Shown piece after piece: positions 2,417-14,763 of a stretch of 64,000 nucleotides of DNA (the first letter of the stretch is position 1; each line of letters starts with the position of its first letter). A program made the position numbers and the translations under genes. The notes beneath the pieces are model-generated. The model worked only from the letters and a program-made list of their open reading frames with translations. It was not told the origin of the DNA and did not search any database. Where the stretch lies: positions 60,913 through 124,912 of the forward strand of contig JBGPLZ010000001.1 in NCBI GenBank assembly GCA_041486695.1. The letters run 5' to 3'. The DNA is from Acidobacteriota bacterium. Lineage in GTDB: Bacteria > Acidobacteriota > Polarisedimenticolia > Gp22-AA2.

Positions 2417-4165
2417 TCAACGCCGGCGGAACTCCTTCTCGAGCTGTGCGAGCGTGAGACGGAGCAGGACGGGACGGCCGTGCGGACAGGTCATCGGACT
2501 CGCCGTCCGCATCAGGTCGTCCACGATCCGCTGCATTTCCTCCGGACCCAGCGCGTGACGGGCGGTGACCGCCGCGTGGCAGGCCGCCGTGGCGACCAGC
2601 CGATGCGTCAACCGTTCGACTCCTTCGCTCTTTTCCCATTCCAGGGTTTCGTCGAGCAGCTCGCGGACCAGCCGGCCGACGGCGGCGACCGGCACCAGCG
2701 CGGGCACCTCATCGATCCGAAGCACTCCCTCCCCGAACCTGACGACCCCGAACCCGAGGGCCTGAAGCGCCCCGGCCGCGTCCCCGAAGGCCACACATTG
2801 GGCCGCCGTCACCTCGGGCGTCAGTGGGAAGAGCAGCCTCTGCCGCTCCACCTGCCCCCGTCGTGCCTGGCCGATCAGCTTGTCGTAGAGAACGCGCTCG
2901 TGAGCGGCATGCTGGTCGAGGATGAGCAACCCCTCCGGAGAGGATGCCAGGATATAGGACTCAAGGAACTGCGCCAGCGGCGCGATCGGGATCGTGTCCA
3001 GGAGGGGAGCCAGCGCCTCGCTCGGACCCGTCTCGTCGCCCCGGCGCCGGGCCGCTGCCTCGGAGACCGGAACCTCCGTCGATCCTCGATCCGGCGAGGA
3101 GGGCCAGGGGTAGCCGGACTCGCCCGGAGAAGCCTCCATGACGGCATGCGGAGCTTCCGCCAGGCGCGGAAAAACCCGGGAGTCCTGGAGTGCTTTTAGG
3201 AGGGACTCCCGCACCAGGTCGTGGATCGCGCCGGGCTTCAGGAAGCGAACCTCAGTCTTTGCCGGATGCACGTTGACATCGACCTGGTCCGGAGGCACTT
3301 CCAGGAACAGATAGACCACCGGATAGCGCCCACGCGGCAGGAGCGTCGCATATGCCGCCTGGACCGCATGCGCGATGCGCCGGTCGCGCACCGGTCGCGC
3401 GTTCACATACAAGCGCACCTCGCGCCCCGTCGAACGGTGCAGGGAGGGCGAGGAAGCGAGTCCATGGAGCCGAATCCCGCCCAGGCGGCCCTCGACCGAC
3501 AGGAGCGAAGCCGACGCGCCGGGGCCGAGGATTTGTGCCACTCGTTCCCGGGCCGAGGGCACCGGTCCCCAGGAGGCCAGGTCGCGCCCTTCGCTCGTCA
3601 GCCGGAAGCCGATGGCCGGTTGCGCCGCCGCCAGCGCAGCCACCAGGTCGGCGATTCGAGTGGTTTCGCTTGCGGCGGAGCGCAGGAATTTGCGACGCGC
3701 CGGGGCGTTGTAGAAGAGCGCCTCCACCTCGACGGTCGTCCCGCGAGGGTGGGCGGCCGGCATCGAACGCGTCACCTCTCCCCCGGCGATCTCCAGACGC
3801 ATTCCGCCCGCGTCGCCTCCGGGTGACGTGGTCAGGACGAGACGCGACACCGAGGCGATCGACGGCAGCGCTTCGCCGCGAAACCCGAAGCTGGTGATCT
3901 CCAGCAGGTCGTCCGCGGAGCGGAGTTTGCTCGTGGCGTGCCGCTCGACCGCCAGCAACGCATCGTCCCGCTCCATGCCGCATCCATCGTCGGCCACCCG
4001 GATCAGGTCCGCGCCGCCGCCCCGGATGTCGATCCCGATTCGCGAGGCTCCGGCGTCGAGGGAGTTCTCGAGCAGCTCCTTGACGACGGAGGCCGGTCTC
4101 TCGACCACTTCGCCCGCTGCGATCTGATTCGCGACCTGAGACGCCAGAACCCGGATCAGGCCCAT
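2417..4165 (-). CDS. mutL: DNA mismatch repair protein MutL
   Basis: GHKL ATPase N-terminus MGLIRVLASQVANQIAAGEVVERPASVVKELLENSLDAGA. C-terminal dimerisation domain. Start taken at the internal Met (4165) that aligns with the canonical MutL N-terminus; the ORF extends to 4255. Confidence 0.85.
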   Translation of the reverse strand: MGLIRVLASQVANQIAAGEVVERPASVVKELLENSLDAGASRIGIDIRGGGADLIRVADDGCGMERDDALLAVERHATSKLRSADDLLEITSFGFRGEALPSIASVSRLVLTTSPGGDAGGMRLEIAGGEVTRSMPAAHPRGTTVEVEALFYNAPARRKFLRSAASETTRIADLVAALAAAQPAIGFRLTSEGRDLASWGPVPSARERVAQILGPGASASLLSVEGRLGGIRLHGLASSPSLHRSTGREVRLYVNARPVRDRRIAHAVQAAYATLLPRGRYPVVYLFLEVPPDQVDVNVHPAKTEVRFLKPGAIHDLVRESLLKALQDSRVFPRLAEAPHAVMEASPGESGYPWPSSPDRGSTEVPVSEAAARRRGDETGPSEALAPLLDTIPIAPLAQFLESYILASSPEGLLILDQHAAHERVLYDKLIGQARRGQVERQRLLFPLTPEVTAAQCVAFGDAAGALQALGFGVVRFGEGVLRIDEVPALVPVAAVGRLVRELLDETLEWEKSEGVERLTHRLVATAACHAAVTARHALGPEEMQRIVDDLMRTASPMTCPHGRPVLLRLTLAQLEKEFRRR

Positions 4166-11981: not shown

Positions 11982-12770
11982 TCAGGCCATCCCGCGCAGC
12001 GCGCGCAGCACCTCGTAACTTCGGAACCGCCGCTCCGTGAGCTCGAAAAACAGCGTCTCGGCAAAGGCGCCGAGGCGCCGCAGATCAGATCCTCCAGGCT
12101 CTCGGCCGAGAAATGCCGTCGGCGGCTCCCGCAGGATCTCCGCCGCCACGGTCAACGCCCCGGGTGGCAGGGCCACATCCGACGGCCCGGCGCTGCCGGC
12201 GCAGCGGCTGCAGACCGGCGCACCCTCCCGGCGATCATAGCGTGCTCCACGCCTCCGCAGATCGGCCCCGCAACGCGCACAGGCCGCGAGCGATGGCAGG
12301 ACTCCGTGCAGCCGGAGAGTCCAGATCTCGAAGTACCGGCCTGCCCAATCGAGCCCGAGTCCGTCGCGCACCGCCCTCAGCACGGCATGCATTAGCCTAA
12401 AGAACGCCTCGTCTTCCTGTTGCTCCCGGGCGAAGGCGTCGGCGATCTCCGCGAAGCTCGCCAGGACCGCCCCGCGCTCCGGGTCTGCCTGCAACTCATA
12501 GAACGATTCCAGGAGCTCGGCGGCTTCCACGCGAGCCAGCTCCACCCCCTCGCGCTCGAACCAGCTCAGCCGGACTCGGCTCAGGAGCTCAAGATTGCTC
12601 CCGAACCGCCGCCGGCTTCGCCGGGCGCCCTTCGCGACGCCGCGGATCTTGCCCGTCGAGCGCGTCAGGAAAATCACCAGCCGGTCCGATTCCCCAAGCG
12701 GCTGGCTCCGCAGAACGAAGGCCTCGCTTTCCCTCAGCGGCACGCTAGGAGTGTGTCCGAGTAATAGCAT
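11982..12770 (-). CDS. recO: DNA repair protein RecO
   Basis: RecO N-terminal OB fold ([36 protein letters not shown]) and C-terminal Cys4 zinc motif (CARCGADL...CSRCAG). The annotated ATG (12768-12770) lies inside the terminal repeat of the adjacent MITE-like element. A GTG at 12743 is an alternative start and matches E. coli RecO in length. Confidence 0.8.
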
Positions 12771-13021
12771 GGGTCGCGTTCGTGGCGCCGCGGGGTCGGC
12801 CGCGAGGCGCCGCGACGACCGCGATGCAAGTCATCGCGGAGGAGCGGCAACGACACGGATGGCCCCGCGCCGCCACGAACCCTTTGGGCACGTGGGGATT
12901 GCGGCCCCATGCTTCGTTGATCGTCGTCAACGATGCGACCATATCGTTTCCTCCTCGCGCCTCGCCTGGGACTCACAAGCCCCACGTGCGCGACCCATGC
13001 TATGACTCGGACACACTCCTA
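12746..13021. mobile_element. MITE-like element with 33-bp terminal inverted repeats
   Basis: Left 12746-12778 TAGGAGTGTGTCCGAGTAATAGCATGGGTCGCG; right 12989-13021 is its reverse complement with one mismatch. About 210 bp of GC-rich non-coding interior with further internal stems (GTTCGTGGCGCCGCGG / CCGCGCCGCCACGAAC; CCGCGATG-caagt-CATCGCGG). Sits in the era-recO intergenic space. Confidence 0.5.
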
Positions 13022-13294
13022 CGAATCCGTCGGCCCGGTCCCTCATCCCCCGACCAGCCGGGGCCCGGCCAGACCGAAAAAGGCCAGGAGGCCCAGGAGG
13101 TCGACCGCCGTCGTGACGAACGGGCTTGAAGACGTCGGCCAGATCGGCCGCACGGACCTTCTGCAGCATGTTGAGGAGGTGACTCGTGGCGCCGCGGCGG
13201 AGAAGCTTCCTGACCGACTCCACCAGGAATGTCGTGTCTTTCATGGCCTCCGCCCCGAAACGGCGGCCATTCTATCCCAAGGAAGGGGTTTCTC

Positions 13295-14242
13295 CTATGT
13301 CGGGGGGAGACCGAGGAGCCTCAGGAGCGACAAGTCGTCGCGCCAGCCCTCGCGCACCTTCACCCAGAGCGCCAGGTGAACCCGCGCGTGGAGCAGCGCT
13401 TCGATGGAGTGTCGTGCACTGGTGCCGATCGCCTTCATCATTGAGCCGCCTTCGCCGATCAAGATCCCTTTCTGTGACTCCTTGTCCACGTACACCGTCG
13501 CCCGAACCCGCATCAGGCCGGAGGGATCCTTCTCGACCGCTTCGATCACCACGGCGGCGGCGTGCGGCACCTCCTGTCGCGTCTTCTGAAACACCTGCTC
13601 GCGGATCAGCTCGGCCATCGCCAGGCGTTCGGGAAGGTCGGTGAGCATTTCCGGGGGGAAGTGGGGCGGCCCCGGCGGCATCCGATCAAGGAGCAGGCGT
13701 TCCAGTCGATCGCAATTCTCTCCGGTCTTGGCCGACAGAGGTACGATCTCCTCGAACCGCTCGAGCGCCCCTGCTTCCTGCATGATCGGCAGCAGCTTCT
13801 CCTTGGACATGCGATCGATCTTGTTGAGCAGGAGGAGGGTCCTGGATCCCGCCTGACGCAGGAGGTCGAACACGAACCGGTCGCCGGGACCGACGCCGTC
13901 GGCAGCGTCGACCAGAACGGCGACGAGATCGACCTCCTTCAACAGGCGGGTCGACATCTGAACCATCTCCTCATTCATGCGATAGCGAGGCTTGTGGATA
14001 CCCGGAGTGTCGATGAAGACCACCTGACATCCCTCGCGGTGGAGTATGCCGCGCACGGGGAAGCGCGTGGTTTGCGGAACGTCCGAGACGATCGACAGCT
14101 TGGCTCCGACCAGGCGGTTCATGAGCGTTGACTTGCCCACGTTGGCCCGCCCGACGAGGGCGACGAAGCCGCACCGAAACCCTTCAGGCACGGATGCCGA
14201 CCCCGGTGCGGGCGGGTCGCCGGGACCCTGCGGATCGCTCAC
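13295..14242 (-). CDS. era: GTPase Era
   Basis: G1 GRANVGKSTL, G3 DTPG, G4 NKID, C-terminal KH domain. Start placed at GTG 14242 (SD GGAGAGG 5 nt upstream; GTGA overlap with the ybeY stop). The ORF track's ATG at 14314 would overlap ybeY by 76 nt. Confidence 0.85.
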   Translation of the reverse strand: MSDPQGPGDPPAPGSASVPEGFRCGFVALVGRANVGKSTLMNRLVGAKLSIVSDVPQTTRFPVRGILHREGCQVVFIDTPGIHKPRYRMNEEMVQMSTRLLKEVDLVAVLVDAADGVGPGDRFVFDLLRQAGSRTLLLLNKIDRMSKEKLLPIMQEAGALERFEEIVPLSAKTGENCDRLERLLLDRMPPGPPHFPPEMLTDLPERLAMAELIREQVFQKTRQEVPHAAAVVIEAVEKDPSGLMRVRATVYVDKESQKGILIGEGGSMMKAIGTSARHSIEALLHARVHLALWVKVREGWRDDLSLLRLLGLPPT

Positions 14243-14763
14243 GATTTCCTCTCCGGGCGCCGGCTCCGTGGCGCCCTTGCCGCCGTCGTGTGGACGGCCG
14301 GTGTCTCTCCCCATGGCAGCCGGCGGCTGTCGAGCGATACGCGCGCCGTCTGGCGCAGCAGACGTTCCTCCATCCGCCGCATGGTGCCGTCATCCGTCTC
14401 GTGATCGTAACCCAGGAGATGCAGATATCCATGGGTGACCAAAAGCGCCAGCTCGTCGCGAAGCCGCCAGCCGGCGCGGCGCGCCTGACGCTCCGCCCGC
14501 GGCAGGGAGATGGCGATCTCGCCGAGATGCGGCCGCCCGGGCTCGAGGTCGGTGGCGGAGGGGAACGACAACACGTCCGTGGTCTGGTCCTTGCCTCGAT
14601 AGGCACGGTTCAAACGACGAATCGAGCTGTCCGAAGTCAGCAGCAAGGTGACTCCCGCATCGCTTCGTCCCGTGGCCCGCCGCAGGCGTCCGAGCAGACG
14701 CCGACAGGCCGGGCCAAGCCTCCGGCCTCCACGAACAGCGGCGACGAGATCTATCGGCCCCAT
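14239..14763 (-). CDS. ybeY: rRNA maturation endoribonuclease YbeY
   Basis: Metal-binding motif HGYLHLLGYDHE. 174 aa with a short basic C-terminal tail. Confidence 0.85.
   Translation of the reverse strand: MGPIDLVAAVRGGRRLGPACRRLLGRLRRATGRSDAGVTLLLTSDSSIRRLNRAYRGKDQTTDVLSFPSATDLEPGRPHLGEIAISLPRAERQARRAGWRLRDELALLVTHGYLHLLGYDHETDDGTMRRMEERLLRQTARVSLDSRRLPWGETPAVHTTAARAPRSRRPERKS

Follow-up and report, generated by a model that had tools for sequence, protein, structure and literature searches.

The DNA analyzed here, a stretch of 64,000 nucleotides (nt) from an Acidobacteriota bacterium of the Polarisedimenticolia (the window), carries era and recO on its minus strand, and between these two genes lie the remains of an mgtE gene and a 276-bp inverted-repeat element. 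This element is a non-autonomous miniature inverted-repeat transposable element (MITE) with ends of the IS1182 type, very probably mobilized in trans by a transposase of that family, and it is inserted directly before an intact recO. The features of the locus, in window numbering, are the following; TIR denotes a terminal inverted repeat, SD a Shine-Dalgarno sequence, ORF an open reading frame, and IS an insertion sequence.

13295 to 14314, minus strand: era, with GTPase (MMR_HSR1) and KH (KH_2) domains
13022 to 13294, minus strand: mgtE remnant, which keeps some 40 codons of the N-terminal part, beginning with the ATG at 13244, and after a change of frame some 25 codons of the C-terminal part, up to the TGA at 13048-13046
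12746 to 13021, minus strand: MITE, 276 bp including one TA at each end, with sharp boundaries common to all copies and with 77-95% identical copies elsewhere
13020 to 13021, no strand: TA, copy 2 of the target-site duplication, read from paired-copy ends and the length match to empty sites
12989 to 13021, minus strand: TIR at the era-proximal (entry) end, with one mismatch to the other arm
12940 to 12956, minus strand: SD-like motif GAGGAGGA (12956-12949) with an ATG 6 nt later (12942-12940), in a mostly unpaired predicted loop
12888 to 12989, no strand: predicted internal hairpin 2, about 100 nt, its distal part loosely paired and deleted in variant L003
12778 to 12880, no strand: predicted internal hairpin 1, about 100 nt, with six pairs showing compensatory changes, and exactly the part deleted in variant L006
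12768 to 12770, minus strand: ATG inside the repeat, in frame with recO, which would add nine codons to RecO and has no SD
12746 to 12778, plus strand: TIR at the recO-proximal (exit) end, TAGGAGTGTGTCCGAGTAATAGCATGGGTCGCG, its first 19-23 nt being those of IS1182-family IS ends
12745 to 12942, minus strand: candidate mini-ORF of 65 codons, with a TAG stop (12747-12745) formed by the terminal TA and the flanking G, 1 nt before the recO GTG
12746 to 12747, no strand: TA, copy 1 of the target-site duplication; TA is present at both ends in nearly all of 38 paired copies
11982 to 12743, minus strand: recO, 253 amino acids (aa) from the ancestral GTG, with RecO_N and RecO_C domains; the longest ORF spans 11982-12770

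The sense orientation of the element, from the entry end at 13021 to the exit end at 12746, is that of era and recO. An earlier note made from the letters of this DNA had described two nearly identical 33-bp repeats around some 210 nt of stem-rich sequence, with TA on both sides, and all of these points were borne out. The arms at 12746-12778 and 12989-13021 are reverse complements identical at 32 of 33 positions, a match that none of 100 dinucleotide shuffles reproduced, and their complementarity extends to 65 nt at 80%. As the interior consists of two separate hairpins and not of one long palindrome, the predicted fold is Y-shaped, with a 33-bp stem and two arms of about 100 nt. Its predicted energy is -186 kcal/mol for the minus strand (z = -12.9) and -178 kcal/mol for the plus strand (z = -11.9), and none of 200 shuffles was equally stable. 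When a transcript is folded together with its flanks, the predicted energy reaches -235 kcal/mol and the terminal stem is extended by flanking pairs into the recO start region. The ORFs inside the element are short and non-conserved, with a reading frame that differs between subfamilies, and the 276 bp contain no transposase gene. No second copy or similar inverted repeat was found elsewhere in the window.

Copies of the element are dispersed in other genomes and in metagenomes. A scan of one genome per species, using a 20-base core of the repeat as query, returned six loci in four metagenome-assembled genomes (MAGs) of Acidobacteriota, which bear the label Polarisedimenticolia or 'gp22'. Three of the loci are complete copies of 277 nt with 91-93% identity, two have lost an internal hairpin in whole or in part (189 and 208 nt), and one is a solo end of 34 nt. 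These loci resemble the window in the element only, and their flanks are unrelated. In metagenomes of soils, sediments, groundwater and peat, the same termini, again with unrelated flanks, occur on at least 120 contigs; the counts of copies, end pairs, ISs and flanks given hereafter are drawn from the matches listed in these scans. Many of these matches lie at contig ends, as expected if the repeat breaks assemblies, which it probably does. When facing ends were paired among the matches listed, we obtained some 16 complete copies (272-279 nt long, with 77-95% identity to that of the window), shorter variants of 142-253 nt, a 315-nt family with a different interior, and five pairs spaced 1460-1550 nt apart. 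The plasmid database and viral contigs gave no match to the element.

The five widely spaced pairs are long elements with the termini of the MITE (19-23 nt identical), 1460-1550 bp in length and each encoding a single protein of 423-447 aa (L025, 41-1500; L048, 319-1778; L120, 3-1465; L046, 316-1863; L023, 64-1613). The IS proteins score 361 and 387 bits on the NCBIfam model NF033551, 'IS1182 family transposase' (cutoff 270), and carry the domains DUF772, DDE_Tnp_1 and DDE_Tnp_1_6. Close homologues of these transposases are very common in metagenomes and are named IS1182 family transposase in MAGs of Terriglobales (93%) and Steroidobacteraceae (82%). The full-length elements fall into two subtypes with an interior similarity of only about 70%, and yet the 19-23 terminal nt of the MITE are found in both.

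Among the 38 paired copies, the five ISs and nearly all of the 33 others start with TAGGAG and end with CTCCTA, a few ends carrying a point mutation. Just outside the element, the left flank has a C in 30/38 copies and the right flank a G in 32/38, from which we read the target as CTAG. CTAG is palindromic, and the first and last bases of the element are G and C, so that duplication of TA and duplication of CTAG would give an identical product; however, of 76 ends, 14 depart from the outer C/G while all keep the inner G/C, which favors a duplication of TA rather than of CTAG. CTAG is strongly under-represented in the window, with 15 sites against about 70 expected from dinucleotides. TA in general is also scarce there (652 against about 1760 expected).

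As the duplicated TA is followed by the G of the element, a TAG stop codon at the target is rebuilt on both sides of the insertion, which is therefore harmless to the gene upstream. Enough flank was available for 171 distinct element ends. Next to 44 of them lies a long ORF with high G+C at third codon positions (GC3) that stops exactly on the terminal TAG, compared with 6 and 12 such ORFs in the other two frames, although the GC3 criterion can take an antisense frame that shares third codon positions for a gene and at least one of the 44 (the left end of L013, with an enolase flank) is an artefact of this kind. GC3 misread one end each of L013 and L096: the genes at these ends, enolase and tsaD, in fact point away from the element. 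At several insertions, again by GC3, two convergent genes both end on the two TAGs. In L048 (319-1778), and also in L005, L006, L011 and L076, the CTAG seems once to have been shared by the overlapping stops of convergent genes, both of which keep a TAG after insertion according to the GC3 calls.

Degraded mgtE sequence of 273 nt (13022-13294) separates era from the element, which lies in the 25-nt spacer between this remnant and recO, not at the end of era, with its own end 2 nt upstream of the recO GTG at 12743. The earlier placement exactly in the era-recO junction therefore stands on the recO side, where the element does abut the gene, and fails on the era side. The remnant reads MKDTTFLVESVRKLLRRG... 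at its N-terminal part and, in another frame, ...LLGLLAFFGLAGPRLVGG up to its stop codon. For the small ORF in this interval Pfam gave no match, and the ORF was explained by alignment to the mgtE gene of L128, which encodes CBS and MgtE domains (1-858, its 5' end cut by the contig), lies directly upstream of recO and ends with a TGA 25 nt before the GTG; the 3' part of the window remnant aligns with the end of that gene. On this alignment, mgtE evidently once separated era and recO. The mgtE remnants of L127 (531-689), L129 (2834-3000) and the window have different deletion end-points, which suggests repeated independent loss. For annotation, the era-recO gap is thus decayed mgtE plus a mobile element, not regulatory DNA.

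Relatives of the window provide the empty junctions that a mobile element should leave in uninterrupted lineages:

L127, RecO 91% identical, without the element: ...GGGATTCCTGGCGTGCCGCTG...
L128, RecO 84% identical, without the element: ...CGGATTTCCGGCGTGCCGCTG...
L129-131, RecO 74% identical, without the element
Window, RecO 100%: ...CGGATTCG-TA[272 nt]TA-GCGTGCCGCTG...

Removing the element and one TA from the window leaves a junction of the same length as those of L127 and L128; the insertion was therefore clean and is younger than the split from the L127 lineage. The assembly WNGG01 has an empty era-recO site (L130) yet carries the MITE elsewhere (L011), and none of the other metagenome loci among the matches listed has the element at the era-recO site. 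Taken together, the clean empty sites, the copies scattered among unrelated flanks, the TA at either end and the lack of an Rfam family sustain the MITE interpretation put forward in the earlier note.

The recO gene is intact, and comparison with relatives supports the GTG at 12743 as its ancestral start. An identical NCBI protein has 253 aa, which corresponds to this start; most of the RecO homologues listed have 251-253 aa (others 243-307); and recO of both L127 and L128 starts at a GTG aligned with that of the window. The suggestion that this GTG is the real start is therefore supported. The ATG at 12770 is incidental, its use for RecO is unlikely, and its annotation as the start is an artefact of taking the longest ORF. 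The annotated start of recO belongs at GTG 12743 and not at the ATG inside the repeat. The insertion has, in addition, put any upstream ribosome-binding sequence 274 nt away from recO.

We aligned 16 full copies and obtained a consensus fold of 97 pairs in which 97.9% of cells are a standard pair. Double-sided changes occur in 16 pairs, compared with 6.4 +/- 1.5 in shuffles (0 of 500 reached 16), and only 0-3 double-sided pairs appear when the partner is shifted by 1-3 columns as a control. The compensatory changes are spread over the inner terminal stem (five pairs), hairpin 1 (six pairs) and hairpin 2 (four pairs), indicating that the pairing has been maintained. This could be due to selection on a fold of RNA or single-stranded DNA or, as we infer, to mutational correction of quasi-palindromes. 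Both strands fold about equally well, and the signals for a strand conflict: four majority G-U sites favor the plus strand of the window, whereas energies slightly favor the minus strand in 14 of the 16 copies.

Inside the element, GAGGAGGA is invariant in all 16 copies at 66 nt from the entry end, and an ATG follows 4-7 nt later in 15 of them. The octamer has a predicted probability of being unpaired of 0.67-0.81, compared with about 0.2 for the rest of the element. The frame from this ATG is usually open to the exit end, and in the main subfamily it stops at the terminal TA plus a flanking G or A. The SD and ATG lie 66 and 78 nt from the element end and those of the IS transposases 64 and 77 nt (L046 and L023) or 67 nt (L048), and because these distances agree, the internal SD and ATG are most simply explained as a relic of the transposase start of a parent IS. 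The exit end faces the start of recO at 2 nt in the window, the ATG of eno at 4 nt (L013), the ATG of tsaD at 22 nt (L096) and a DUF2062 gene at 5 nt (L084). In the L013 enolase, the Enolase_N domain starts at residue 4. For recO, eno and tsaD alike, the stretch from the end of the element to the start codon contains no SD.

The direction of flanking genes was called with a codon-usage log-odds score trained on the genes of the window, and examples were checked with Pfam. By these calls the copies are not randomly oriented: a gene stopping on the terminal TAG adjoins the entry end in 15 of 22 copies but only 5 of 24 exit ends (p = 0.0025 by Fisher's test), counts that come from a home-made classifier applied to about 45 flanks, some of them narrow calls.

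In the mechanism that we propose, an IS1182-family DDE transposase would recognize the ends of about 22 nt and move the MITE in trans, inserting it at CTAG and duplicating TA, with the TAG stop rebuilt on both sides. One copy entered the 25-nt spacer between decayed mgtE and recO after the split from relatives with a 91%-identical RecO. If co-transcribed, the very stable Y-shaped fold of a 33-bp stem and two hairpins would be set against the recO start codon, and since the modelled stem extends into the start region, some effect on initiation would be likely. The exposed SD and ATG may then let ribosomes translate the 3' half of the element, opening the terminal stem, stop at the TAG 1 nt before the recO GTG and re-initiate on recO, and the insertion would thereby be tolerated. 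We regard it as rather unlikely that the mini-ORF with its SD and ATG restores translational coupling onto recO in this way and explains the orientation bias. The wider proposal, that the MITE is built to be harmless within operons both by targeting and rebuilding TAG stops and by coupling across 274 nt onto recO, eno and tsaD, we likewise consider improbable; were it true, selection would remove copies in the other orientation, and both the orientation bias and the conserved fold would be accounted for.

Several observations weigh against this mechanism. The interior of the MITE is unrelated to either IS subtype beyond the shared ends, so that its direct parent is not among the ISs found, and no autonomous IS was found within the window. 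The peptide of the mini-ORF is not conserved and three diverged copies are frame-shifted, so the mini-ORF is not a protein gene. An open frame of 65 codons has a chance of about 1 in 4 in DNA of 67% GC, and an invariant run of 10 nt is not unusual at the mean column identity of 92% in the alignment. The orientation bias, apart from the narrow calls behind it, could instead stem from the direction of replication or from harm caused by the opposite orientation.

The IS1182-type origin and the proposed coupling have to be weighed against other explanations. There is about an even chance that the element is a purely selfish and inert MITE. In that case recO would still be expressed, for instance by weak initiation independent of an SD, the covariation would be a mutational by-product of template switching at inverted repeats, and the SD and ATG would be a relic of a transposase start. 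The matching distances of SD and ATG from the ends of MITE and IS agree with this, as do the non-conserved peptide, the similar folding of both strands and a sigma-70 promoter scan that found no promoter-like site. However, a palindromic CTAG target gives an inert element no reason for its bias in orientation, and the copies directly before the starts of the housekeeping genes eno, tsaD and recO displace the SD, yet these genes are intact. We hold it possible, though doubtful, that the co-transcribed stem instead acts, as the earlier note suggested, as an RNase III cleavage site or an attenuator; by analogy with the Correia elements of Neisseria, it would then uncouple recO from the upstream transcript. 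Its 33 bp with one mismatch, the predicted extension by flanking pairs and the compensatory changes that keep the structure would suit such a role. On the other hand, no T-run follows the stem, which is therefore not an intrinsic terminator for transcription from era to recO (a terminator scan matched only some short stems within the mgtE remnant and one site on the opposite strand), and both orientations form the same stem, which leaves the orientation bias unexplained.

Explanations that replace the IS1182-type MITE altogether fare worse. The strong fold (z of about -12 to -13) and the covariation would also be expected of a conserved structured RNA gene or of a cis-regulatory RNA of the era-recO operon, and a match to a known RNA family was the outcome that the earlier note had set against its own reading. 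An Rfam search at a permissive E-value returned four matches of 12.7-14.3 bits against gathering scores of 39-181, which is chance level. None of the five relatives examined has the element at this junction; dozens of other, unrelated loci do carry it, with sharply defined ends flanked by TA, and its ends are those of ISs that encode transposases. Empty sites and dispersed copies refute the RNA gene, which we therefore reject as next to impossible. IS630 elements have a CTAG target and a TA duplication as their classic signature, and the TA at both ends and the preference for CTAG in the present element recall this signature. A MITE of the IS630/Tc1-mariner type is nevertheless extremely improbable, since all five full-length elements with TAGGAGTGTGTCCGAGT ends encode IS1182-family transposases above the NCBIfam cutoff, and no IS630 model appeared among the profile matches. 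The likeness to IS630 is thus one of target and duplication, the transposase families being unrelated.

Small inverted repeats that are co-transcribed and form long hairpins able to affect mRNA processing or expression are familiar from the Correia elements of Neisseria and the enterobacterial repetitive intergenic consensus (ERIC) sequences. The window element resembles these in being a small inverted repeat with predicted long hairpins, but it has no sequence relation to them and is associated with another transposase. The Chunjie MITE of Geobacter uraniireducens inserts within operons without breaking them. It is likewise a MITE between co-directional operon genes with intact flanking genes, although unrelated in sequence, and to our knowledge the arrangement of SD and mini-ORF proposed here is not part of its description. 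Repetitive extragenic palindromes and the bacterial interspersed mosaic elements built from them (REP/BIME) are imperfect palindromes of 20-40 bp with GTAG/CGTC heads and RAYT transposases; we rejected this class because the window element has 276 bp, TIRs, a target-site duplication and a DDE IS partner.

The closest known system appears to be found in Methanosarcina acetivorans, where MITEs derived from IS1182-family elements and related to ISMac2 are described in the available text of the report on them (PMC3852290). As presented there, they share with the window element a size of 160-280 bp, the lack of coding capacity, a multicopy state, TIRs of 25-33 nt in common with an IS1182-family IS, and a short duplication (PMC3852290). 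The window element differs in host (Polarisedimenticolia and relatives within the Acidobacteriota), in sequence, and in an interior unrelated to the ISs found; its duplication is read as TA within CTAG, while that of the ISMac2-related MITEs is given as 4 bp in the same text (PMC3852290). That text, as available, does not report stop-codon targeting or an orientation bias (PMC3852290). Within the IS1182 family, ISPse1 of Paracoccus has 1653 bp, 16-bp inverted repeats and 4-bp direct repeats (PMC3281130). The full-length partners found here (1460-1550 bp, with one DDE transposase of 423-447 aa) are ordinary members of the family, and the MITE uses their ends and target; unlike them, it has no transposase and only 19-23 terminal nt in common with them.

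An IS1182-associated MITE in Acidobacteriota lies within known transposon biology, and it is the stop-codon targeting, the maintained pairing and the orientation bias that go beyond a routine repeat. The abundant MITE family in Acidobacteriota, including the little-studied Polarisedimenticolia, and its IS1182-type partners are apparently undescribed in the literature searched. The transposon uses sites that are rare in a high-GC genome, CTAG and TAG stops, as places where it can land safely, and if the coupling were true, the element would be a clear case of a selfish element that carries its own device against polar effects on essential downstream genes.

Further observations concern individual loci. 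The variant L006 (7302-7490) lacks hairpin 1 and L003 (747-954) lacks the distal part of hairpin 2, consistent with slippage across stems. In L001 (1456-1489), an ORF of 431 aa terminates at the TAG of the solo 34-nt end, which was probably left behind when the rest of a copy was deleted. Over the mgtE remnant of the window (13152-13317, plus strand) lies one of the Rfam matches, to Chloroflexus-1 RNA (14 bits, E = 0.7, the gathering score being 181), which we take as chance. In L046 (at about 1864) and L023 (at about 1614), a second TIR-like start (GGAGCGTGTCTG and GGAGTCTGTCCG, respectively) directly follows the shared TA of the full-length IS, so elements insert beside, or into the end of, each other. 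L084 contains two diverged copies (1731-2007 and 3334-3612; 95% and 77% identical to the window copy) that are inverted and 1.3 kb apart, with their exit ends facing inward and bracketing the DUF2062 gene, a layout like that of a composite transposon.

Other MITE families have the same TAGGAGTGTGTCCGAGTAATAGC ends with different interiors and a GC content of 37-58%, compared with 68% in the family of the window:

L008, 2419-2733
L065, 4592-4906
L064, 392-707
L121, 1426-1643
L076, 9232-9390
L083, 379-577
L109, 2405-2546

As several families with these ends occur in different hosts, one transposase lineage seems to serve them all. The 159/218/315-nt family and the family of the window also have the short motif AGGCGCGAGGAG in common.

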